A stretch of DNA of 20,000 nucleotides from an uncultured virus (IMG/VR IMGVR_UViG_3300025327_000013) (Duplodnaviria; Heunggongvirae; Uroviricota; Caudoviricetes). A program made the translations under genes and the position numbers. This document shows, piece after piece, positions 2,478 through 19,795 of the stretch. A model generated the notes under the pieces. It saw nothing but the letters and a program-made list of their open reading frames with translations, made no database searches and had not been told where the DNA came from. The DNA lies in IMG/VR virus record IMGVR_UViG_3300025327_000013; one strand, written 5' to 3'. Positions within the stretch are counted from its first letter, which is position 1. Each line of letters starts with the position of its first letter.

Positions 2478-3358
2478 TTGATTCGGCGGTGCGAGATCGG
2501 ACGGCGTGCATGATGAGAGTGAGGAACGAAGAAAGATGGCTAAAAAGGTCACTTGAGCGGACTTACCAGGTGGCAAAGACCGTTGTGCTGTTTGACGACG
2601 GATCTGAAGACAGAACTATACGTGAGGCGCTTGAGACCGTCCTGCCGAGTACGGATGTCATTGATCGCCTGCTGGCTGCGCCAGATCCCATTGCTGTGGC
2701 GTACAACGATCGGTGCTTGTATGTAATCCGTTCTCCGTTTCGGTACAATGTAGTGCGGCCACGAGAGTCAGTCAATGAAATCGTGGATAAGGTGATACTC
2801 TGGCGGTTTGTTAAAGCGACCGTGGATTTTGACTACATACTCTGTCTTGATGGCGATGAAATTCTTACGCTGGCAGCCATTCGTAATTGGTCGTCGGCTA
2901 TCGAACAGATGCGCTCGGGCATTGACATCTTGCACATTCCGTTCCTTTACGCTTGGGATGCAGAAGATCGACGTCGCGTGGACGGTATTTACGGGGACAT
3001 CCCTGGTAGTTCGTTCGCGAAGTTGAATTTCCCGAGGCTCTTTACCATTCTTCGACTGAACGAACATTCTTTGTACAATTCTACCTTCCAGTGGCATGGC
3101 ACACAATGGAGTCTTCACGGAGGCAGTGTGCCTCGCCAGAACTTTCGACCTCTCGGGGCTGAGCCGACGTCTGGGAATGCCCACCTTCCTGTTTTACACC
3201 TTGGATACGTGTCTGAAGAACTCCGGCAACGAAAGTTCATTTTTTATAATGCTCAGGATCCGGCCAACGACGCGGAAGGGCGGTACGAACATATTGTAGG
3301 AAGAAGTGATATTCATGCCCCTGGACCATTGGAATTTGTATCCTGGAGCGATACATGA
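2474..3358 (+). CDS. GT2-like (GT-A) glycosyltransferase
   Basis: VRNEERWL, FDDGSEDRT, CLDGDE (DxD), HLGY. Confidence 0.85.
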   Translation: MIDSAVRDRTACMMRVRNEERWLKRSLERTYQVAKTVVLFDDGSEDRTIREALETVLPSTDVIDRLLAAPDPIAVAYNDRCLYVIRSPFRYNVVRPRESVNEIVDKVILWRFVKATVDFDYILCLDGDEILTLAAIRNWSSAIEQMRSGIDILHIPFLYAWDAEDRRRVDGIYGDIPGSSFAKLNFPRLFTILRLNEHSLYNSTFQWHGTQWSLHGGSVPRQNFRPLGAEPTSGNAHLPVLHLGYVSEELRQRKFIFYNAQDPANDAEGRYEHIVGRSDIHAPGPLEFVSWSDT

Positions 3359-3879
3359 ACGCGAGAACACGCCGACCTATAATTATAAAAGACGGTATAG
3401 CGTATATAGATCTTGCCGGTAGAGACTGGGCACTTATTAACGAGGAAGATTTACCCTTAGTTAGTAATTGGCCGTGGCATAGGATTAGAGGAAAGTATAC
3501 TTGGTACGCCGCAACAAATATTAGAGTGCCAAGTCGTCAACAAGAATACATGCACAGAATGATTCTTGGTACATCTGGGAACAAATATACCGACCATATA
3601 AATGGTAATGGGCTTGATAACAGACTGATCAATTTAAGGGAATGTACTAATGGTCAGAATATGCGCAACGCTGAAAAGAGAAAACGTGGCAAAGTTTTAT
3701 CTAGTAAATATAAAGGAGTATGTTGGTCTAAGAAATCTTCTTTATGGAGAGCAACGATTAAGGAGATGGGCATTCAAAGACATATTGGACTTTTTAAGTC
3801 CGAGGTGGAAGCCGCTAGGGCTTATGATTCAGCAGCAATAAAAGCATTTGGCGAATTCGCAAGGCCAAACTTCGCATGA
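3355..3879 (+). CDS. HNH endonuclease with C-terminal AP2 domain (free-standing homing endonuclease)
   Basis: MHRMIL..DHINGNGLDNRLINLR (HNH); SKYKGV..WRATI..IGLFKSEVEAARAYDSAAIKAFGEFARPNF (AP2). Visibly AT-rich relative to neighbours. Confidence 0.93.
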   Translation: MNARTRRPIIIKDGIAYIDLAGRDWALINEEDLPLVSNWPWHRIRGKYTWYAATNIRVPSRQQEYMHRMILGTSGNKYTDHINGNGLDNRLINLRECTNGQNMRNAEKRKRGKVLSSKYKGVCWSKKSSLWRATIKEMGIQRHIGLFKSEVEAARAYDSAAIKAFGEFARPNFA

Positions 3880-4610
3880 TCTACGCCGTCATCCCGTCCA
3901 GAACTGACGCCTACCTCGACGCGCTCCTGTCCTCCATGGAAGTCTCCGAGCCAGGCATGCTCGGGTATGCCGTGATCGCTGATAATGGGCTAAGTCAAGA
4001 GTTCAAAGATCGCTGGAAGATGATGTGTACGTTCGAACCGACGCCACAACCATTCGTATTCGCACAAGCCATCAACCTCGCGGTGGCCAAGATTCCAAAG
4101 AGCGCGGACATCCTCATCCTGAACGATGATACGACTATGGTGAGTACGTTCTGGCGTCAGCGTGCTGAGCGCCTACTCCGATCCCCAGATCTCGAGCGCT
4201 ACGGCATGATCTCGCTGGCCATCGACGGAGGCGTGGGGAACCCGGAGCAGAAGCGCGTGTTCTGGCAGACACCGGACGTGGTCGAGGCCACGAAGACGCT
4301 GTGCTTCGTTGCAGTGATAATCCGGCGCACGGCGTGGGACGCAGTAGGGCCGATGGATGAACGGTTTCACGCGTACGGCCACGATGACGACGACGCAGTG
4401 CGTCGCATGAAGTTAGGTGGTTGGAAATGTGGCGTGACTCAGCGTATCGTGGTAACGCACGGCGCTGATGGTAGGCCGCACAGCGCGTCATATCTTCGGT
4501 ACCATAGCCAGGAAGAGGCCGATAGGCTCTTCCATGAAAACCAGAGGATCTACTTTAATAAGTGGGGAGGATCTCCTGGGTATGAAAGGTTAACGGTGCC
4601 CAATCCATGA
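3876..4610 (+). CDS. GT2 glycosyltransferase
   Basis: IADNG, FAQAINLA, LILNDD, GPMDERFHAYGHDDDD. Confidence 0.88.
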   Translation: MIYAVIPSRTDAYLDALLSSMEVSEPGMLGYAVIADNGLSQEFKDRWKMMCTFEPTPQPFVFAQAINLAVAKIPKSADILILNDDTTMVSTFWRQRAERLLRSPDLERYGMISLAIDGGVGNPEQKRVFWQTPDVVEATKTLCFVAVIIRRTAWDAVGPMDERFHAYGHDDDDAVRRMKLGGWKCGVTQRIVVTHGADGRPHSASYLRYHSQEEADRLFHENQRIYFNKWGGSPGYERLTVPNP

Positions 4611-6001: not shown

Positions 6002-6177
6002 TCGTAACCTGTTCTTCGTGCCAGCTAGAATACGACGATTTATATACGCTCACCTATTGCCCACATTTGCCATTCCAAATGCATACGAAGGTCACCGTTA
6101 ACGGCATCCAGCGCTGCTGTCATAGCATCGAAGAACTGCGCGAAGCGATGCTGGACAAGACGCAGAGTGAACGATGA
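5998..6177 (+). CDS. 59-aa Cys/His-rich hypothetical protein (not in ORF track)
   Basis: GTG start, MIVTCSSCQLEYDDLYTLTYCPH...CCHSIEELREAMLDKTQSER*; 4-nt overlaps on both sides. Confidence 0.6.
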   Translation: MIVTCSSCQLEYDDLYTLTYCPHLPFQMHTKVTVNGIQRCCHSIEELREAMLDKTQSER

Positions 6178-6809
6178 CGTTGGGTGCTGAGAAAAGAGCC
6201 ACCAGGATTTGGGAAAAAACATGCCCAGCGTGTGGAGAATCTTTTGCTGTTGGCGGTGCATGTGGACCAATGAGAAAGAAAAAGTATTGTTCTGTGAGAT
6301 GCGCGGGATTTTCCCCGTCCTTTTCTTCACCACGTGGGGCAATGCCGTTAGAGATGAAAAAGGAAGACGCTGCTTGGTTAGCAGGCCTGTTCGATGGCGA
6401 AGGTTGCGTGATCATCTACAAAAGCTCAAGTAAGTATTCAGTCCGATATGCTATGAAGATAACATTGTCCAATACGAACTCAGAAGCACTTGTAAGATGT
6501 AGGGATATTTCCGGGGTTGGCAATGTTGTTCTTGGCAGGGCAGGAACATATAAAAGTAAGCCGAGTTATTACTGGGTCGCCGGCAGTGAGACCGCTGCTG
6601 CTATTCTTCGTCAGATACTACAGTATTCTTTTATAAAGAAACCGCAGGTAGAACTTGCCCTGAAGTTTCAAGAAAAAATGCTGACTGCGTCTTTGAGGGC
6701 TCAGCTTGGATGGCAATTAGAGATGAAAAATGAGCTGCATTTGTTGAATTATCGTGGACCTCGTATTATAACGCAGCGTCTTGGTCGCCCGAAGACAGAG
6801 GCTGTGTAA
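6174..6809 (+). CDS. Single-motif LAGLIDADG endonuclease with N-terminal zinc finger
   Basis: CPACG..YCSVRC followed by AAWLAGLFDGEG; AT-rich. Confidence 0.88.
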   Translation: MTLGAEKRATRIWEKTCPACGESFAVGGACGPMRKKKYCSVRCAGFSPSFSSPRGAMPLEMKKEDAAWLAGLFDGEGCVIIYKSSSKYSVRYAMKITLSNTNSEALVRCRDISGVGNVVLGRAGTYKSKPSYYWVAGSETAAAILRQILQYSFIKKPQVELALKFQEKMLTASLRAQLGWQLEMKNELHLLNYRGPRIITQRLGRPKTEAV

Positions 6810-7486
6810 TGCTACCCATCGTTATGCCGTGTGTGAATTGCGTTTCTTATAGTAAGCAAGCGGTCGCGTCCGCGCATCCTCGCAGCGATCTCTACTTCAT
6901 CGACAACGCCTCGACAGACGGCACGCGCGAGTGGGCGCAGGCAGAGGCCAACGCTGGCAGACTTCGATATCTGCCCCAGAGGTATAATCTTGGCGTGGCG
7001 GCATCCTGGAACCTCGGGATCCGAAAAGCCTTTGCTGACGGCCATGACAGCGTACTAGTGAGCAATAACGATGTTGTGTACGACGTGGATACGATCCCGA
7101 ACCTCGAGCGCTGGCACGAGGAGACAGGGGGCTTTATCACCGTCCACTCGGTCGCGTACCTTGAAACGCTGCTGAAGCAAGCGCGGCGGCATGTGCTGGA
7201 GCAGCCACCGGATTTCGCGGGCTTTGTTATCTCACGGAAAATATTTGAGATGATTGGTCCGTTCGATGAAGGATTCCGTCAAGCGTATTTCGAAGATCTG
7301 GATTATGTCATCCGCATGAAAGACGCTGATATAGTTTACGGCCGTGCTATGAACTCCTTAGTGCTTCATTACCACTCGAGAACTGTACACGAGGGGGGAG
7401 TGAAGGCTTTCCCTCAGCAAGAGTTAAATCGTCGTCGCTTCATTGCCAAGTGGGGGCAACAGCGGCTACAGGAAGTCGGGCAATAG
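6809..7486 (+). CDS. GT2 glycosyltransferase
   Basis: IDNASTDGT, NLGVAASWNLG, SNNDV, FDEGF..YFEDLDY. Confidence 0.92.
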   Translation: MLPIVMPCVNCVSYSKQAVASAHPRSDLYFIDNASTDGTREWAQAEANAGRLRYLPQRYNLGVAASWNLGIRKAFADGHDSVLVSNNDVVYDVDTIPNLERWHEETGGFITVHSVAYLETLLKQARRHVLEQPPDFAGFVISRKIFEMIGPFDEGFRQAYFEDLDYVIRMKDADIVYGRAMNSLVLHYHSRTVHEGGVKAFPQQELNRRRFIAKWGQQRLQEVGQ

Positions 7487-7891: not shown

Positions 7892-8202
7892 ACACTATAT
7901 CAAACTATCGCTTCGACGGTGTCAAGACTGAGCCAGTGTATTTCTGCCGTTGTGGTGTTGAGCACACAGGAGATTACGCAATCTACGATTTCGGACATCA
8001 TATGTGCTTTCACGATGGACCACTGTGGGATATCGGCTTAGGTCAATTTGTCTGCTCGGAGTGTGGGAAAGATTTCAGAGTTGAGGAGATGCGCTCAGAA
8101 TATGATATTCGTCAAGGTGTACGAAGGAAGTATACTACCCGTTATCAGAAGCTCTCGTGGTGGCAGGAAATAGTCTTGTATCTGCAGGCGCTCTACCGAT
8201 GA
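7888..8202 (+). CDS. Hypothetical zinc-binding protein
   Basis: AAGGAG SD; CRCGVEH, HHMCFH, CSECG. Confidence 0.6.
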   Translation: MNTISNYRFDGVKTEPVYFCRCGVEHTGDYAIYDFGHHMCFHDGPLWDIGLGQFVCSECGKDFRVEEMRSEYDIRQGVRRKYTTRYQKLSWWQEIVLYLQALYR

Positions 8203-9311
8203 TCCGCGTGGGGTATTCGTCGTTTCTAGCTGACAGTTCGGGCATGGGGGAAGCGGCTCGTCGAGTACTGACTGCGTTGTCACTTCTTGACGACGTCGAA
8301 GTCGGTCCAGCGATCCTCAAGGGCGGGAAGCGAATCATCAGTGACGGGGGCTGGCAAGTGCCGATCACGCCAGCGCTCAAAGCATTCATCGACTACGATC
8401 TCTCTGGCCCAGCCGACGTTCATATGATCCACTGCGCTGCGATGGATTTCGATAAGTTTCGGCCACCGTTCATGACAGCGAAGCGGATCGGCATGACTTG
8501 TGTAGAGGTCGATCGCCTACACCGTATCCAGATCGAAGGCTGTAAGTTCGTCGATCAGGTACTCGTACCATCCAAACACAACCAGGAGGTCTTCGAACGA
8601 GCTGGCATAGCGACGACCGTGGTCCCGTATCCGCTGGTCATGCCACCGTATACAGATGAACGGAACATCCCGAACCGGCAGGCAATCGTCGGGGTCTTCG
8701 ATAGCTCGTACGTATTTTATTGTGTAACCACCCTCCAAGAGCGCAAGAATATCATGGGTCTCGTGACCGCGTTCCTCCATGCCTTTACGTGGCAGGATGA
8801 CGTCGCGCTCCTGATCAAGGTTGCTGGTGTGGATCCTCAGCAGGCTGTCAAGGACGCCGCTCTTTTCGTCGGAGCTTTGTGCACGGACATGCAGATCCAG
8901 GATCCGCCAAAGATCCGTCTGCTCGGCGGGGAATGGACGGATCCCATGCTCTGGGGCCTCCATGCTCGAGGGGACTGCTACGTGTCCTTATCCCGTGGGG
9001 AGGCCTTCGGAATTCCTTTGTTGGATGCCGCCGCCATGGGGAACCAGGTCATCGCGGTGCCGTACGGTGGCCACGTGGACTTCTTGCCGGCTGAAAACAC
9101 GCATTGGGTGAAATATAGGATGACGCCAGTTGTCCAGAGATACCCACATTTCAATGGCCAGCAACTCTGGGCCGACGCCGACATCCTTCAGGCCGCCAAC
9201 CTCATGAAGGAGATCGCCAAGAAAGGACGAGGGCCGAAAGCTCTACCGAACCTCACAGCATTTTCTACTATAAAAATCGCGGAGTTACTGCACAAGGTGC
9301 TTACTGAATGA
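8199..9311 (+). CDS. GT4 glycosyltransferase
   Basis: SGMGEAAR, ERKNIMGL, SRGEAFGIPLLDAAAMG. Start at ATGA overlap. Confidence 0.9.
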   Translation: MIRVGYSSFLADSSGMGEAARRVLTALSLLDDVEVGPAILKGGKRIISDGGWQVPITPALKAFIDYDLSGPADVHMIHCAAMDFDKFRPPFMTAKRIGMTCVEVDRLHRIQIEGCKFVDQVLVPSKHNQEVFERAGIATTVVPYPLVMPPYTDERNIPNRQAIVGVFDSSYVFYCVTTLQERKNIMGLVTAFLHAFTWQDDVALLIKVAGVDPQQAVKDAALFVGALCTDMQIQDPPKIRLLGGEWTDPMLWGLHARGDCYVSLSRGEAFGIPLLDAAAMGNQVIAVPYGGHVDFLPAENTHWVKYRMTPVVQRYPHFNGQQLWADADILQAANLMKEIAKKGRGPKALPNLTAFSTIKIAELLHKVLTE

Positions 9312-12642: not shown

Positions 12643-13662
12643 ATGCCAAAAGGATATGTCACATCTGACATGATCGACCTCAATGAGCTGTGGTATGCAG
12701 GCGGTGGTATCGCCGCTGCCGTCGATCAGTATCAAGCGGTCGAGATGCCGCTACTAAACGCACTCGCATTGCCGTGGCCGGAAAACATCATGAAGTACGG
12801 CATCAGCGAACGGAACGGATTCCAGGTCCTCGGGCCTGGGGAACGGCCAGACCGCAAGTACGTCGTAGAAGCGACGATGTACCCCGTCGTGACGAAGTAT
12901 GGCTACGGCGTGGGGACGGATCTCGATACCCTGCAACGCTCCAGCGCGCGGCAGATCATGCTCGCCATGAACCGGCCGATGCTGGAGGATCCTGAGCACA
13001 TCCTGACGCGCATTCTCAAACTTCTAATGACGAACCCAGGTACCAGTAATGCTGGGTACGGATTCTGGAACGGGCAGTACGCGGCAGAGGAAATTATCAC
13101 GCATCCGCCGGCCTATCAACAGCAGACGTTTGCGGCTGGCCACAACCACTTCTTGGTGTCGCTCACGGCCAGCACACTCGTGCTCAAAGACATCACCGCG
13201 ATGAAGCAGACAATCCGGCATCACGGGGCCAAGGGCACACTGCTTGGTTTCATCAATTCCGATACCGCGATGGCGATCGAGAACCTTGCGCTCTTTACCG
13301 TCGGCAGCACGGCGCTGGTGCGTTCGCCTGTATCGGATACCGTTGCGGTCGACGGCTTCGGGGAAAGCTTCAGGCTGCTCGGTGTCGACTGGTACGTCAC
13401 GGAACTCGTGCCGGCCAACTACGTCCTCATGGTCGAAGGCAATTCTGCCGAGACTGAGCGGCCGTTGATCATGTACGAGCCCGCCGCGATGCGGGGGCTC
13501 AGGCTGCATCCAGGGCCGATGAACGACTATCCGCTCATCGAGTCCTTCTGGGATCGGTGGTTTGGATTCAAGGTCGCCAGGCGCGGTTCCGGTGCTGCGC
13601 TCTGGTTTGGTGCGCACGTCGGGACGTATACGTCGCCGACATTCTCGTTCACGGCGTCGTAA
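12643..13662 (+). CDS. Major capsid protein (probably HK97 fold)
   Basis: 339 aa, strong SD, position after scaffold and decoration genes, downstream hairpin. Confidence 0.75.
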   Translation: MPKGYVTSDMIDLNELWYAGGGIAAAVDQYQAVEMPLLNALALPWPENIMKYGISERNGFQVLGPGERPDRKYVVEATMYPVVTKYGYGVGTDLDTLQRSSARQIMLAMNRPMLEDPEHILTRILKLLMTNPGTSNAGYGFWNGQYAAEEIITHPPAYQQQTFAAGHNHFLVSLTASTLVLKDITAMKQTIRHHGAKGTLLGFINSDTAMAIENLALFTVGSTALVRSPVSDTVAVDGFGESFRLLGVDWYVTELVPANYVLMVEGNSAETERPLIMYEPAAMRGLRLHPGPMNDYPLIESFWDRWFGFKVARRGSGAALWFGAHVGTYTSPTFSFTAS

Positions 13663-13738: not shown

Positions 13739-14089
13739 ATGAGAACACATCAGAGGGAGAGGGTGAAGGAGCATCTGATCGATCCGCGTCAATGGCGTGT
13801 CATCGGTCAATTGCGGCACCATGACGTGACGTACGGCACGGCAGAACCGCTGCCGGATATCACGGTGACTGAAGCGGCGCTGTACGAAAAGCAAGGCACA
13901 TTGATGCGGGTGAGCGATACGGCACTCGCAGAATCATATCTTGAAGGGCCTGATGTGGCGGTGCTGCAGACTGTGCTCGACAAGAAACCGGATGAACGAG
14001 TGCTGAATCAGATGCTTACACTGGCGCAAAGGAATTCGCGATCCAAGGTGCTTGAATTGGCGCTGACCATTGCCAGGGGGAGTGCATAG
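13739..14089 (+). CDS. Hypothetical phage protein downstream of capsid
   Basis: GAGGAG SD; stop overlaps the next start. Confidence 0.7.
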   Translation: MRTHQRERVKEHLIDPRQWRVIGQLRHHDVTYGTAEPLPDITVTEAALYEKQGTLMRVSDTALAESYLEGPDVAVLQTVLDKKPDERVLNQMLTLAQRNSRSKVLELALTIARGSA

Positions 14090-16401
14090 TGCCACGTGTG
14101 CTGATCGTCAGCGATAGCCCGGCGGTGAGTTCTGGCATGGGCCGCGTGGTGCGTGAACTCGCGCCGCGATTCACGGCCGACGGATTTTCGGTCGGGGTCG
14201 CTGGGTGGTTTGACCTTGACGCTCCTGCCATGGACTTCGATTATCCAGTTTTCCCAATTCAGAAGCACGAACCGGCGAGCCTGCAACCGTATCTCGAGCA
14301 CTTTGCGCCGGATCTCGTGGTGGCGATCGGGGATCCGTGGGACTGGGCGTGGCTTGTCAATCATCGGTTGCAGACCGGCGGATACAAGCTCGTCGGCTAC
14401 CTAAATGTCGAAAGTGCTCCATTGCCCATGCTGTGTGAACGTATTCTCGACGGTTTCGATGCCGTGTGTACCTCTAGCCAGTACGGTGCCCGTGCGATCG
14501 GCCGGCCTGGCGTGACTGCGATTCATTACGGCGTCGATACGGAGACGTTCTTTCCCATGCCGCCACCGTCCAAGGTGTTGTTTGGGAAGCCATTGGATCA
14601 GACATTCACGGTGCTGATCAACGGGCAAAATACATTTCGAAAGAACTTGGGCGCATCCATGGCGGGATTCCTGCAGTTCGCTCGCGGGAAGCCGGATGTC
14701 CTGGCGTACTTCAATACCGTCGCTAGGCCAGGTCCGAACGATGCACCCGGGACGGACCTCGTGGATCTGTCTATTCAGCTCGAGGCTGAGAAACTCGTTT
14801 GGTTCAATCCAGACAACCATGGACCGATCAAGACCATTGACGATACGGCCTTGAACGGACTCTATGGGATTGCCTCCGTTCTGCTCTCAACTTCTGTCGG
14901 CGAAGGATTCGGGCTTCCGGTCCTCGAGGCGATGGCCTGTGGCGTTGTTCCGGTAGTTCCGCAAGATTTCAGTATGCCGGAAATCATCGGAACGGAACCG
15001 GGTCAGTACATCCAACACGCCCGCGGTATTGGGATCCCGGTGCATGCGTACATTCCGACGCTCCAGGGTCAGCGGGTGCCGGTGGTCGCTGACGCGGACA
15101 TTGCGGATGCGCTCCAAGCTGCCTACGACGCATGGCGTCATATGCGCGCAATGTCCAATCTCGATGGGGATACGACCAGCTTCGGCGTGATGCGCACAAA
15201 CGGTCTTGAATTCGCGCGGAGCAAGACCTGGGATCGGACGTATACGCAATTCGTTACTGTGTGCCTAGACTCCTTGCGGACGCCGCGGTCGCGGATGGCG
15301 GTGGGCCGACCCATCGAGCCAGCTATCCGACTCTTTGGACGCCGGACAGCCAAACGGCATCCGGAGGCTTTTGGCGTGCTCAAGATGGGCGGGTTGGGTG
15401 ACATGCTGCAGGCCACGGCCGTTATCCGGGCTGCGGCGCTCAAGTCAGGACGCAAGGCCGTAGTTTTCTGCAACGCCCATGCGGACGTGTTTCTGGCCAT
15501 GCCAGAGGTGGTTGAAACTGTGCAACTCGCTCCCATGCCCCAGCAAATGGCAGCAGACAGCCTAGCAGACGAGTTTCCGCTCTTCCTGGACGTCCGGTAC
15601 GTCTCGAGGGCCTACGGCCTCTGGAAGCCCACGGCGTTCTTTGAGAAGCATCAGTGGTTTTATGACCACTGGACGCCGTCCTCAAATCGCCTGGCGACCC
15701 TTGGGATGCACAGTACGCAAATCATGCTGGATAGTTTGGGGCTCGAGGGGCCGATTTGGCCGGTCTATGAACCTCGGGCTGAGCCGTCGCTGGATCGCGC
15801 TGCGTGGCCAGTCGAGCCCTACGTGGTCTTGGCGACCGGTGTCGGTGCTATGGGAGGGCTCAAGCGCTGGCCGGCGGAGCGCTGGACCGCGCTCGCCCGT
15901 GCTCTTCACCTGGACGGACTTCACCTTGTGCATGTCGGCGGCACTGGGGATGACGCGGTGGATGGCATTGACTTTGATTACCGTGGTGCAAGCCTACCTG
16001 AGACCGCGTGGATCCTTGAGCATGCGCAAGCGCTAATTGCCGTGGAAGGTGGGATTGCACACTTGGCCGCTGCGGTCATGCGGCCTTTTTGGGGACCGGA
16101 TGGGCAGAAGGTGCCCAACGGACAATTCATTGGAGTGATCTTCGGGCCAACGCCCACTAGGCCTTTTCTCTATCCAGGCCACACCGCTCTCGTACTCCCA
16201 GAATTCTGTACCCCATGCTGGCAGGTCGAACCGAATTGGAAGCACGCCAAATGCTCAATCGGAGCACCGAGTTGTGTGAACTTCCCGTCGGTGGCGGATG
16301 TCCTCTCTACGGTAACGCTGTATCTGCCGCGTGTGACCCGAACATCCTTTTCTTCTCCCAGTACGGCGCATGCCCTGCATATGGAAATGATACCGAAATG
16401 A
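14089..16401 (+). CDS. GT4-GT9 double glycosyltransferase fusion
   Basis: N half: SDSP..SGMG, RKN, GEGFGLPVLEAMACG. C half: GGLGDML, KRWP..RW, EGGIAHLAAA, IFGPT, CTPCW. Confidence 0.9.
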   Translation: MPRVLIVSDSPAVSSGMGRVVRELAPRFTADGFSVGVAGWFDLDAPAMDFDYPVFPIQKHEPASLQPYLEHFAPDLVVAIGDPWDWAWLVNHRLQTGGYKLVGYLNVESAPLPMLCERILDGFDAVCTSSQYGARAIGRPGVTAIHYGVDTETFFPMPPPSKVLFGKPLDQTFTVLINGQNTFRKNLGASMAGFLQFARGKPDVLAYFNTVARPGPNDAPGTDLVDLSIQLEAEKLVWFNPDNHGPIKTIDDTALNGLYGIASVLLSTSVGEGFGLPVLEAMACGVVPVVPQDFSMPEIIGTEPGQYIQHARGIGIPVHAYIPTLQGQRVPVVADADIADALQAAYDAWRHMRAMSNLDGDTTSFGVMRTNGLEFARSKTWDRTYTQFVTVCLDSLRTPRSRMAVGRPIEPAIRLFGRRTAKRHPEAFGVLKMGGLGDMLQATAVIRAAALKSGRKAVVFCNAHADVFLAMPEVVETVQLAPMPQQMAADSLADEFPLFLDVRYVSRAYGLWKPTAFFEKHQWFYDHWTPSSNRLATLGMHSTQIMLDSLGLEGPIWPVYEPRAEPSLDRAAWPVEPYVVLATGVGAMGGLKRWPAERWTALARALHLDGLHLVHVGGTGDDAVDGIDFDYRGASLPETAWILEHAQALIAVEGGIAHLAAAVMRPFWGPDGQKVPNGQFIGVIFGPTPTRPFLYPGHTALVLPEFCTPCWQVEPNWKHAKCSIGAPSCVNFPSVADVLSTVTLYLPRVTRTSFSSPSTAHALHMEMIPK

Positions 16402-16408
16402 TTTTGTC

Positions 16409-16609
16409 ATGATACGACGGCTCAGTATCGCCTACCTCGTTGCCGTATTGACGTGGGGGTTTACGCTGTCCATTGGGGATTCGACGTTTCGCGTGTGTGG
16501 ATTTACAACACGCGATAAATGCTGGAGTGTACATAAGACGCTGACCGACGCATTCCCTGAATGGATCCTCGGTCACTGTGAACGTGAACCGCTGGTGCGA
16601 CGTGGCTAA
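16409..16609 (+). CDS. Small secreted or membrane protein
   Basis: Hydrophobic N-terminus; GFTTRDKC..GHC. Confidence 0.5.
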   Translation: MIRRLSIAYLVAVLTWGFTLSIGDSTFRVCGFTTRDKCWSVHKTLTDAFPEWILGHCEREPLVRRG

Positions 16610-17078
16610 CACGGATCTGGGCAGCCTTGAGCCGCAATTGATTGAAGAACTCGGTGGCGAGGACCTGGCGCCCGGCGTCCTCCGTCGGATGAACCTCCTT
16701 ATCCAGGCGGTACCGGATTTCAACGCCGCCACGCACGTAGCCTTTGGGTTGGCTGGTACAACGCTTGATCGCGAAGCCTCGCCCATGGAATCCCGCGCGA
16801 TCGTGCTCTTTGCGGCACTGAAATATCTTCGCGGGATGGCCATTGTGTCTGCTGGCATGGCACTCAGTCACACGAACGTCGCCGGCCGTACGGACACCTC
16901 GGGTCAGCCGCGTGCGTACGAGCGGCGCATTGAATCGGTTGAGGCACGGTTGGCGGCGGTCATGGAACGTCTAACTGACCACGCCATTGCTGGAGAAACC
17001 GTGGCGGCCGAGTTGGGAGAGACCAAAGACTTGCTTACGAGTCTCCCATCAACGTCGTGGTGGGATTGGCGCTGGTAA
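16602..17078 (+). CDS. Putative head-tail connector
   Basis: Size, position and helical character; GTG start overlaps upstream ORF end. Confidence 0.55.
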   Translation: MANTDLGSLEPQLIEELGGEDLAPGVLRRMNLLIQAVPDFNAATHVAFGLAGTTLDREASPMESRAIVLFAALKYLRGMAIVSAGMALSHTNVAGRTDTSGQPRAYERRIESVEARLAAVMERLTDHAIAGETVAAELGETKDLLTSLPSTSWWDWRW

Positions 17079-17145
17079 ACCCTGTTGCAGAGAGGAGGAG
17101 GCGGTATGCACGTGACATTCACACTTTCACGAGGAGGAGGGGCGC

Positions 17146-18244
17146 ATGGCAACTGCACGCATGAAGAAGGGTAGGCGCCCGCGGGGAGGAGTCACGCACT
17201 CCTCGATTCATGTCCGCGGGTTCGCTCGGATTCAGATGGGGGAGAGGGTCGACGGTCACCTGAAGATTGTCGGTGATTCCGGGTGGCTGAAGAACACGAT
17301 TACCAACGAGGGGCGCAATCTGTACATCGCGGCGCAGGTCGGCTCTGTCACCGGTTCCAAGCAGGTGAACGCGCTCCAGCTTGCGACGCAGCAAACCGCT
17401 GTCGATGCCGCGTCCACGGCTCTTGTGGGTGAGACGCGCGTGCGGAAGACACTGCTGGCGTCCACCCTCGCAACGGGTACGTTGCGGATGACCGCGTCCT
17501 GGTCGTCTACGGACAATGCGGCGGCGATCACCATCGGGTCGATCGCTGTGTACAACACCACTACCGCTGGGGCGGGTACCATGGGATCGGGCCAAAGTTT
17601 CACAACTTTGACTGTAAAATCAACTACTTACAGAGCGCCTGCTCTTTATCTAGTTGGTTGCGGAGCCTTGGCTGCGTGAGCTACCAAGGGATGGCCGCTA
17701 ATTCGGCGAACGCTGTGATGCCAACGCCGAGCGAAATGCCTGAGGCGATGAGGACGCGCTCGCAACACGTCTCAGGTATCTGTGTAGAGATCATATACGG
17801 CCCTCTTCGGCGCGTGCAGACCGGAGATGAAGACATGATCCATGCCCTGGCGAATGATAAGTCAGGGAACCAGCCCGATAGCCCAGTAAATTTGACGCAC
17901 TGCGCAATGGGCGTCAAATCAAGATTTGTCGGCTACGTTACTCCTGCTGCAAAATCAACTAGTTATATCTCAGAATATGAGAGATCGGTTGATAGCAGCG
18001 TAAAGGGGTCGGCGCGTCATATTGGTGACGATATGACGGATGGTGGCGAACTCGGTGGACGCTGTGATGCCAATACCGAGCCAAGCGTTGGGTCAGGGGA
18101 GATCGCACTCGTTTGTACTGACTCAATGGCGTGTGTAGAGACTAGGTGCCACCCTCTCCCGTGCGGTAGTTTGGGAGATGAAGGTATAGTCCACTCCCCG
18201 GCGAACGATAAGTCGGGAGCCACGAGGACGAGTGGCGTTTCTAA
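17146..18244 (+). CDS. Ser/Thr/Gly-rich virion protein, predicted spliced: join(17146..17608,17903..17938,18228..18244), 171 aa
   Basis: Strong SD; NTITNEG motif. Removing two U|...G-bounded group I introns gives an open frame ending GQSFTTSQWASNQDLSATYEWRF*. Confidence 0.75.
17609..17902 (+). ncRNA. Group I intron 1 (294 nt, no ORF)
   Basis: P2 CCTTGG/CCAAGG; P3 GGCCG 17693/CGGCC 17798; P4 TTCGGCG/CGCCGAG; P7 GAGATCA 17787/TGATCC 17836; P9 CCTGGC/GTCAGG. IGS GTTGCGGAG 17657-17665 pairs with ligated exons CTT|CGCAAT. Confidence 0.85.
17939..18227 (+). ncRNA. Group I intron 2 (289 nt, no ORF)
   Basis: P1 TACGT/GCGTA with U.G; P2 CGTCATAT/ATATGACG; P3 GGTGGC 18042/GCCACC 18148; P4 CTCGGT/ACCGAG; P7 GAGACTA 18138/TAGTCC 18187; J8/7 GAAGGTA; P9.0 CTC/GAG directly before the terminal G. 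Confidence 0.9.
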
Positions 18245-18280
18245 CGCATCGCGTTACAGTAGTTTGAGAGAGAATCAAGT

Positions 18281-19399
18281 GTGATTTGGACGAAGGAGAT
18301 GGATGCACTACTGCTCGAGAAGTATCCGAGCGAAGGTGCCCGTCCGTGCTCGGTACTATTCGGCGTATCAATCGACGCCGTATGGCACCGAGCACGGAAA
18401 CTAGGCTGTCATGCGAGCAAGGAAGTGCAGAAGTCTGCCATCCGTAGATGGAAAGACGAGTACGACGACATTCTTCGGAAACGGTATGCAGTCGACGGTC
18501 CACAAAGAATAGCAGCAGAACTCAAATTATCTAGGCAAACCGTAGAGAATCGGGCAGCGGCTCTTGGTCTTACAAAGGGACACTGGAGTCAGGAATCGGA
18601 TGCAGTAATTAAATCCGGTTATGCCGCAGATGGTGCTGCAGCCGTTGCTAAGGTTCTAGGGGTACCAATTTCTGCTGTGTACCACCGTGCCCGACGACTT
18701 GGAATTAAATATGACTGGAAGACTCGTCGTGGACAGTCGCAGTGGCTTTCAGAAACAGTACGTGTAACCGCAGCTATCCGTGATGATTTAAAGTGTGGAA
18801 TTTACGCTATTCGACATGGTGACAGTGGTCGGATGTATGTTGGTAGTGCTCTTGATATCTTTTCAAGATGGAAGGTACATCTAAGGGGTTTGCGTCAAGG
18901 TAAGCATCATTCTAGGGCATTACAAGCAATCTTCGATAAATATGGACCATCAGCATTCGTTTTTGAAGTTTTGGAAGAATGTGCTTCTGAACAGCTTTAC
19001 GAGCGCGAACAGCAGTTCATGAATATTCATAAACCTGACTTAAATTCGGCTCCAAACGCGGGGAGTCCACGTGGCATTAAACGCACTGCTGAGCAACGTG
19101 TTGCCCATACAAAGAGAATAAGAGCTATTTACGCTGATCCAATTAAGCGCAAACGCATTAGGGCAGCAAAGTCAGCGGCTATGCGTGAAAAGTGGAAGAA
19201 CTCAGAATTTCGAGGCAGAATGTCGACGGCTTGGCGTACGCGTCCGTGGGATGGCGAGGAGGATAATTACCTTTTCAATCTCTCTGGGCATCTTCCTCTT
19301 AAAGAATTAGCCGTAGTTTTTGGCCGAACACCGTCGGCCGTCCAAAATCGTGTCCATTTCCTCGGTCTCAGTCTCCGCGCCAAAGGAGCGAGGGTGTGA
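18281..19399 (+). CDS. Free-standing GIY-YIG endonuclease with HTH-like repeats
   Basis: CGIYAI..RMYVGSA..RW..H..FEVLEEC..REQ..N. Repeat W..E.D..L..Y..A..S..V..RA..LG occurs three times N-terminally and once C-terminally. Confidence 0.92.
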   Translation: MIWTKEMDALLLEKYPSEGARPCSVLFGVSIDAVWHRARKLGCHASKEVQKSAIRRWKDEYDDILRKRYAVDGPQRIAAELKLSRQTVENRAAALGLTKGHWSQESDAVIKSGYAADGAAAVAKVLGVPISAVYHRARRLGIKYDWKTRRGQSQWLSETVRVTAAIRDDLKCGIYAIRHGDSGRMYVGSALDIFSRWKVHLRGLRQGKHHSRALQAIFDKYGPSAFVFEVLEECASEQLYEREQQFMNIHKPDLNSAPNAGSPRGIKRTAEQRVAHTKRIRAIYADPIKRKRIRAAKSAAMREKWKNSEFRGRMSTAWRTRPWDGEEDNYLFNLSGHLPLKELAVVFGRTPSAVQNRVHFLGLSLRAKGARV

Positions 19400-19795
19400 A
19401 TGGGCACCGGCTATCTCACCCCCGCGCAAATAGCGCAGATCAAGGCGATCCGAGCGAAGGCCTGGAACCGCCCGTTCACGGTCTACACAGAGGTACGGAG
19501 CTCGCCGACAGATTACTACGACACGCCAGCGCTCCTGCAAAGTGGCACGACCACGGTGCTATCAGGCGACTGGGCCTGGCGCGGGCAGGTGGAGAACCGT
19601 GGAGAAGCGGGTGGAGTGATCCAGCATGCGGACTTAGCGCTGGCAACGGATATCCTGTATTCCGGCTCCCTGATGCAGGCGGGGGTACGACTGGTCGTCG
19701 ACGGCATCACGGTGGCGGTGATACGGGCATCCCCGTACCCAGATTCAGGGGAAATCGTTGTGAACGCTGTCAGAGTTCTGACGACCAATGAGTAA
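19400..19795 (+). CDS. Putative head-closure/adaptor protein
   Basis: AAGGAG SD; beta-rich with RLVVDG; size and position. Confidence 0.6.
   Translation: MGTGYLTPAQIAQIKAIRAKAWNRPFTVYTEVRSSPTDYYDTPALLQSGTTTVLSGDWAWRGQVENRGEAGGVIQHADLALATDILYSGSLMQAGVRLVVDGITVAVIRASPYPDSGEIVVNAVRVLTTNE

Follow-up and report, generated by a model that had tools for sequence, protein, structure and literature searches.

Evidence for two closely spaced group I introns at the 3′ end of a tail-fibre-like gene in an uncultured soil phage

The end of the gene lies in three pieces

Where does a conserved phage gene end when its reading frame runs on into sequence that most of its homologues do not have? This question is raised by positions 17146–18244 of a 20,000-nucleotide (nt) stretch of the uncultured Caudoviricetes record IMGVR_UViG_3300025327_000013 (the whole stretch is here called the window), in which a preliminary description had seen a virion gene split by two tandem group I introns. 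We consider it very probable that this is a gene for a tail-fibre- or baseplate-like protein of about 171 amino acids (aa), that its 3′ end is split by two group I introns which contain no open reading frame (ORF) and are removed by splicing, and that the endonuclease gene downstream likely serves homing. Both introns are confined to the last 20 codons of the conserved gene and lie 36 bases apart; such crowding of selfish elements into a short conserved stretch is neat and not unprecedented, and the arrangement is unusually compact.

All parts of the gene are on the plus strand. Exon 1 (17146–17608), which has a GGAGG-type ribosome-binding site 5′ of its ATG, comprises 154 codons plus 1 nt and ends in a U (T17608). 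Intron 1 (17609–17902, 294 nt) begins after this base and ends in G17902, and is followed by an internal exon (17903–17938) of 36 nt, equivalent to 12 codons with both end codons split, whose last base is T17938. Intron 2 (17939–18227, 289 nt) runs from there to G18227, and the last exon (18228–18244, 17 nt) supplies 2 nt of a Tyr codon, four codons and the stop codon TAA. Neither intron holds an ORF. These coordinates are exactly the five intervals given in the preliminary description, and the three exons, joined by script, yield 171 codons plus a stop. Unspliced, the frame enters intron 1 and meets a stop at 17677–17679, in the P2 loop of that intron (intron 2 has its in-frame stop in the guide sequence, at 18001–18003); the resulting 177-aa protein, P0001, is the version of the gene callers and the database, as had been anticipated.

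Using exon 1 alone as the query, we collected 58 proteins (expectation value E ≤ 0.001) among 169 candidates, P0001 itself included. With P0001 set aside, the complete conserved tail of the spliced type is present in 44 of 57 homologues, and P0006 (170 aa, 83% identical) ends in exactly the residues encoded by the 36-nt and 17-nt exons, so that the predicted 171-aa product does share its tail with intron-less homologues. In tblastn searches with P0006, exon 1 was matched over residues 1–153 at 83% identity and the 36-nt exon by residues 153–165 at 92% identity. The residues of the 36-nt exon are the near-invariant tail of the family, the 17-nt exon completes the conserved C-terminus, and the intron junctions are fixed by the family's invariant Ser and Tyr codons. 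Both the exon structure and the homology of the joined product are direct observations, and, since the homologues end with the spliced tail and not with the read-through tail, they favour splicing.

Of the other 13 homologues, P0047 is a long form, P0059 is a fragment and P0060 is a distant match. The remaining ten diverge within the last ~20 codons, most of them with a short in-intron reading to a stop like that of the window, so that these too were read into introns. On this evidence the standard annotation is wrong here, the tail of its 177-aa protein being false, and the same error recurs in at least ten database homologues. On the DNA level, the tblastn alignment of P0006 is unbroken to the stop codon in all fetched loci except L005/L028 and L035, L016, L036 and L044. 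The first three carry the two-intron allele at 99.5% identity in two other assemblies (L005/L028 and L035) and are the window phage's own copies. At least half of the sampled words of the allele are present in 14 DNA runs. Four runs with part of the allele (X12–X15) gave only fragmentary contigs, identical to the window and without a joint that skips an intron; thus no intron-less allele of the window phage was seen.

Both intervening sequences have a group I core

We next asked whether the two intervening sequences have the secondary structure of group I introns. A covariance model, R1, was built from seven related introns, one of them from the same genome, with both window introns excluded. 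Searched on both strands of the window, R1 finds two places only, each with all 150 model positions matched and no non-standard pair: 18039–18193 in intron 2 (127.9 bits, E = 3.7e-31) and 17690–17842 in intron 1 (108.9 bits, E = 2.3e-26), these E-values being rough because the calibration was shortened. Such scores are well beyond what chance would give. Over 46 loci the model gives 13 matches, none of them in an intron-less locus, and the whole 45.6-kb record holds three.

An alignment of ten introns, with both window introns included and with P2, P3, P4, P5, P7 and P8 drawn by hand so that P3 and P7 cross, supports the same fold. Of its 313 cells 92.7% pair, as compared with 34–44% when the partners are slid, and both sides change in 23 of 32 pairs, the observed covariation values being reached by none of 500 shuffles. 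P3 and P7 are 100% paired in all ten introns, with two compensatory changes in each between the window introns, and the pairs of P3, P4, P5, P7 and P8 are all standard in both. These cores and pairings are observed, and both introns display the hallmarks of group I, namely a core that covaries and includes the P3/P7 pseudoknot, a U just 5′ of each intron and an omega G as the last base. The claim of two complete cores, each starting after a U and ending in G, is therefore borne out by covariation, by R1 and by the boundaries. By our reading, both introns lack P5abc and P7.1/7.2.

An intein, a programmed frameshift and translational bypass were considered as other causes of the gap and rejected. 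No intein domains were found, and complete ribozyme cores with U/G boundaries explain the gap without any of the three.

Splice-site pairing and the proposed reactions

In both introns the guide sequence is separated from the 5′ splice site by a stable hairpin of ~50 nt, with free energies of −19.6 and −21.6 kcal/mol for the folded regions, so that P1 is unusually extended. In intron 1 the extended P1 hairpin (~17612–17663) overlaps the guide sequence (17657–17665) and is followed by P2 (17666–17689) and the core from P3 to P7′ (17690–17842); in intron 2 the corresponding parts are ~17944–17998, 17998–18002, 18015–18038 and 18039–18193. P1 of intron 2 comprises five pairs, 17934–17938 with 17998–18002, the last being U17938·G17998. 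P1 of intron 1 is formed by C17606–G17665, U17607–A17664 and U17608·G17663, and directly 5′ of its guanosine lies a P10 of six perfect pairs (17657–17662 with 17903–17908), for which we calculate a chance probability of ~0.375^6 = 0.003. Contiguous P1 and P10 are the classical arrangement and fix the junction of intron 1 independently of the protein argument.

From these features we infer that both introns are spliced out, either alone or with host factors. After transcription, each intron would fold into a standard core (P3–P9, with the P3/P7 pseudoknot) carrying its long P1 hairpin; guanosine would attack after U17608 and after U17938, and the exon ends released in this way would in turn attack behind G17902 and G18227, so that exon 1 is ligated to the 36-nt exon and the latter to the 17-nt exon, with the six-pair P10 of intron 1 lining up the 36-nt exon. 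Without splicing, translation would end after 23 codons of intron 1, at the cost of the near-invariant C-terminal strand. Exons of 36 and 17 nt, and of ~22 nt in the related locus L044, would mean that a small exon context is enough for these ribozymes.

Several results weigh against this interpretation. A search with the Rfam model RF00028, which the preliminary description had named as a check, fails at the curated threshold: there are no matches at gathering (50 bits) in the window or in the whole 45.6-kb record, intron 2 reaches 23.1 bits (E = 0.0018), below the 50-bit cut-off, and intron 1, searched alone, has no match. Hence RF00028 at that threshold misses all three introns of this genome, the third being described below. 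The gathering threshold is a curated score cut-off and not a structural feature, and the related introns score 55.4 and 52.4 bits (L029), 52.6 (L044 intron B), 51.9 (L016) and 47 (L036). In addition, P1 of intron 1 has only three exon pairs, and by our reading a competing five-pair helix, 17603–17607/17652–17656, would put the splice-site U opposite a U; inspection of the pairings in intron 2 found no evident P10; and the 21 listed runs with the stretch are all DNA, from soil or sediment metagenomes, with none on record as RNA.

Sub-threshold or absent RF00028 scores, the three-pair P1 of intron 1 and the 177-aa form given by gene callers would also fit introns that are decaying and have lost splicing, such that the truncated read-through protein is made or the gene is dead. 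We regard this as very unlikely. The 36-nt and 17-nt exons keep near-invariant residues with no change relative to P0006, which would be unexpected if they were untranslated, and all pairs of the P3, P4, P5, P7 and P8 helices are intact in both introns. Moreover, the tail that is lost without splicing forms the last β strands (E145–156 and E160–169) of a high-confidence AlphaFold model, which was built with 134 sequences and has a predicted local distance difference test (pLDDT) score of 92.5; a model from the 33 close homologues only had a pLDDT of 50 and was discarded.

A different possibility, one that we would not favour but that deserves attention, is that splicing is not autonomous, with intron 1 needing host or phage factors or translation, or that it gives more than one product, exon skipping yielding a shorter protein. 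The frame is indeed kept if the 36-nt exon is skipped, and P1 of intron 1 is weak. In Bastillevirinae, four of eight spliced genes were spliced only in infected cells and one showed exon skipping (PMC11878797), and exon skipping in orf142 of Staphylococcus phage Twort is cited in the same source. None of the 57 homologues, however, lacks just these 12 residues, and intron 1 has a strong P10, which speaks for correct pairing with the 36-nt exon.

The host protein resembles phage tail proteins

The preliminary description had called the split gene a virion gene, a guess that is now supported by fold and family labels only; the window protein itself matches no Pfam or PHROG family. At E ≤ 0.001 its family is large, with 296 representative clusters, almost all of them 150–190 aa long. 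Members match phrog_4176, 'tail fiber protein', in 46 of 134 cases (best E = 4e-13) and phrog_5417, of unknown function, in 73 of 134; PF23140 (Gp80) is matched weakly by 5 of 33 members (best E = 0.19), and the family profile finds nothing below E = 0.03 among PDB sequences. With the AlphaFold model, the best Foldseek match is 9h4p_BD, a tail protein of Haloferax tailed virus 1 (E = 5e-6). The top eight chains in VIA-align are all from phage tails, fibres, baseplates or necks (Z = 11.2, 8.4, 7.9, 7.7, 6.7, 6.5, 6.5 and 6.2), the next chain, which is unrelated, having Z = 4.3, and an Atlas cluster with PF12571 gives template modelling (TM) scores of 0.74/0.82. A major head protein gene (12643–13662; phrog_3990, E = 8e-34) lies 3.5 kb upstream. 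Model and family labels together support a tail-fibre/baseplate-like virion protein, in the sense of a fold that does not fix function.

The phage belongs to a soil lineage with no cultured relative among 50,697 phage records: blastn in distant mode with positions 16000–19500 and tblastn with P0006 gave no match there. The case adds an uncultured soil lineage to the Twort-like staphylococcal phages as a source of group I introns in virion genes.

A probable homing endonuclease gene follows the stop codon

Missing from the preliminary description were two elements, a third related intron elsewhere in the genome and a free-standing GIY-YIG endonuclease gene (18281–19399, plus strand) whose start lies 37 nt beyond the host gene's stop codon. 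The gene encodes 372 aa from the GTG at 18281 (an alternative ATG is at 18299). Residues 171–252 of the protein match positions 1–74 of the 78 in the PF01541 profile with 36.9 bits against a cut-off of 22.6, the protein also matches phrog_314 (E = 7.5e-20) and phrog_323 (E = 7.4e-23), and helix-turn-helix modules surround the nuclease domain, three on the N-terminal and one on the C-terminal side. It is flanked by the host gene and by the conserved gene that comes next (19400–19795), and takes a place in which relatives have a gene for a membrane protein of ~70 aa. Homologues of the GIY-YIG gene, with 33–76% identity among them, stand directly after the same host gene in L036, which has one intron, and in L037, L038 and L046. 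Inside the endonuclease ORF there is also a 56-nt near-perfect palindrome (18343–18398) with a weak match to a microRNA family on each strand (E = 0.06 and 0.14); as RNA families these matches probably have no meaning.

A second endonuclease family uses the same spot. In a distant clade (~40% identity) of low guanine-plus-cytosine (GC) content, an HNH_3 gene lies directly after the host gene and before the usual methyltransferase gene (L012:4510–5253, L013:4517–5362, L016:4815–5318, L019:4591–5169 and L021:4571–5053), and L016 carries an intron in addition.

Judging from its adjacency, the GIY-YIG gene is most likely a homing endonuclease for the 3′ end of the host gene. Its product would cut intron-less or endonuclease-less alleles near that end, and repair of such a break would take the endonuclease gene, together with the adjoining introns, into other phages, by trans or collaborative homing. 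Two observations speak against this part of the interpretation. The endonuclease-bearing loci L037, L038 and L046 show no intron in the available sequence, and the association of endonucleases with introns across loci is weak, suggestive at best: introns are present in 3 of 10 endonuclease-bearing loci versus 1 of 20 others, counted over non-redundant loci with enough downstream sequence (one-sided Fisher p = 0.095; 72 of 149 downstream ORFs were scanned for endonucleases). Since the locus family has natural alleles without introns, with one and with two, and with or without the adjacent endonuclease, it provides material for tests of collaborative homing and of protection by introns.

Intron kinship and insertion sites

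How did two introns come to stand so close together? The core of intron 2 is 79% identical to the L036 intron, 74% to the third intron of its own genome and 65% to intron 1, and the core of intron 1 is closest (69%) to intron B of L044, which is located at the site of intron 2 in another phage. Core similarity thus does not follow insertion site, and on these comparisons the window introns are not a recent tandem duplication. The same identities bear on the idea of a single composite element, that is, an intron nested in another, or two copies of one intron set apart by an exon-like spacer. The two introns do align at ~75% column identity including flanks, and both have the motif of the 5′ hairpin and the same sequence in the P9 loop, but the spacer encodes consensus residues exactly, each intron has its own complete core, guide sequence and terminal G, and each core has a nearer relative elsewhere than its neighbour; we consider a composite element extremely improbable.

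Introns in relatives occupy four or more positions in the same 60-nt stretch. Four were verified on DNA, namely those of window intron 1, of L044 intron A and of the L036 intron, and a site in the Tyr codon common to window intron 2, L044 intron B and L016; shortened protein tails suggest several more. In L044 (L044:1133–1399) two introns leave an exon of only ~22 nt between them, and for the first of these no junction that keeps the consensus has both the preceding U and the terminal G; by our reading, an alternative junction would alter three residues.

A 12-nt motif on the 5′ strand of the long P1 hairpin, which it heads in three introns, connects these introns with the endonuclease gene. 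It occurs in the window at 17619–17630 and 17954–17965, and also at the 5′ end of the L036 intron (the listed occurrences are L036:773 and 1086, L037:3453 and L038:1419). In L036, L037 and L038 the motif also begins at the host gene's stop codon and there forms a hairpin that directly precedes the ribosome-binding site of the GIY-YIG gene, and the pattern has only one further occurrence in 262 kb of loci. Protein tails such as that of P0005 suggest that some introns at the site of intron 1 lack the hairpin. The motif may stem from recombination of an intron with an endonuclease cassette, from a regulatory hairpin common to both or from another cause.

A tentative view, which we think possible rather than probable, is that the last ~60 nt of the gene are a contested landing strip, in which a GIY-YIG gene (high-GC clade) or an HNH gene of an unrelated family (low-GC clade) stands after the stop codon and introns of one subfamily occupy at least four positions, having moved between sites. 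Introns may then persist by breaking the endonuclease target and so protecting their carrier, and the 12-nt motif could be the footprint of recombination between intron and cassette. If this is true, the motif would be a natural snapshot of mobile introns being assembled or taken apart.

The third intron of the genome (L050:2818–3047; 38817–39046 of the genome) is ORF-less, belongs to the same subfamily (R1, 134.6 bits) and splits a gene of ~270 aa and unknown function ~17 codons into its coding sequence. A LAGLIDADG-like free-standing endonuclease ORF (L050:1651–2730; PF14528, E = 9e-7) is located directly upstream, so that an endonuclease and an ORF-less intron are again paired at a gene end.

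Comparison with known systems

Phage group I introns are mostly reported from DNA-metabolism, terminase and lysin genes (PMC8541194, PMC3888941, PMC11878797). The preliminary description had held multi-intron late genes to be uncommon. Rare they are, but there is a precedent in orf142 of phage Twort, later identified as the tail tube gene, which has three group I introns and exon skipping (Landthaler and Shub 1999, cited in PMC11878797). The window gene is like orf142 in having several close ORF-less group I introns in a virion gene, in requiring more than one ribozyme reaction for a small protein and in the possibility of in-frame exon skipping. It is unlike orf142 in that two introns lie within the last 20 codons and leave exons of 36 and 17 nt, in that it comes from an uncultured high-GC soil phage, and in the endonuclease gene directly downstream. 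Among the papers listed on micro- or mini-exons between group I introns, one concerns fungal mitochondria and the others spliceosomal introns, so that no record is claimed for 36 nt.

In collaborative homing, a free-standing endonuclease and an ORF-less intron share one target site, as described for psbA and F-CphI of cyanophage S-PM2 and for a second phage system (PMC3984707). There, the published cleavage sites were mapped to the intron insertion site. The window gene differs from the published pairs in having two introns and in relatives that carry the endonuclease without introns.

Bastillevirinae resemble the window in having two or three group I introns per phage gene, some of them missed or partly matched by RF00028, and alternative splicing has been seen there; their introns are in genes for DNA polymerase, terminase, thymidylate synthase and ribonucleotide reductase, average 802 nt and often contain endonuclease ORFs (PMC11878797), unlike the window introns of ~290 nt without an ORF in a tail-fibre-like gene. 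The introns of td, nrdB and sunY in phage T4 are likewise in protein-coding genes and have an early in-frame stop within the intron. They carry or carried their own endonuclease ORFs, and are in nucleotide-metabolism genes (PMC3984707), in which the window introns differ from them.

Further observations

Related introns also occur in other settings. L029, an IMG/VR contig of 111,877 nt, has six RF00028 matches (E ≤ 0.0024) within ~3.3 kb (L029:2400–5730) and a seventh with E = 0.94; two are above gathering, four places are matched by R1, and the ORFs between them have no PHROG match except for a weak resolvase-like one, so that this contig has a stretch very dense in introns. The intron of L031 (2554–3343), also a member of the subfamily (R1, 54.8 bits; RF00028, 35.1 bits), encloses a GIY-YIG ORF whose relatives include the free-standing ones (E = 2e-10 in tblastn against the L037 protein).

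In two relatives the CyVA-1 RNA (RF02965) is found above its gathering threshold of 41.4 bits, at L037:4641–4718 (53.1 bits) and L003:4900–4977 (46.3 bits), in each case a few hundred bases downstream of the host gene, with no match in the window. In L023, a 662-aa ORF (L023:5066–7051) two genes downstream of the host gene has within it an intein that includes a LAGLIDADG domain (E = 2e-10 for Intein_splicing and 8e-9 for LAGLIDADG_3).

The window itself contains at least five glycosyltransferase-like ORFs (20–1084, 3876–4610, 6809–7486, 8157–9311 and 14089–16401), one of which, with 770 aa and two domains, lies between the head gene and the tail-fibre-like gene. Among them are two more endonuclease-like ORFs (3355–3879 and 6174–6809; phrog_99 HNH and phrog_5046), which make this a genome rich in selfish nuclease genes.
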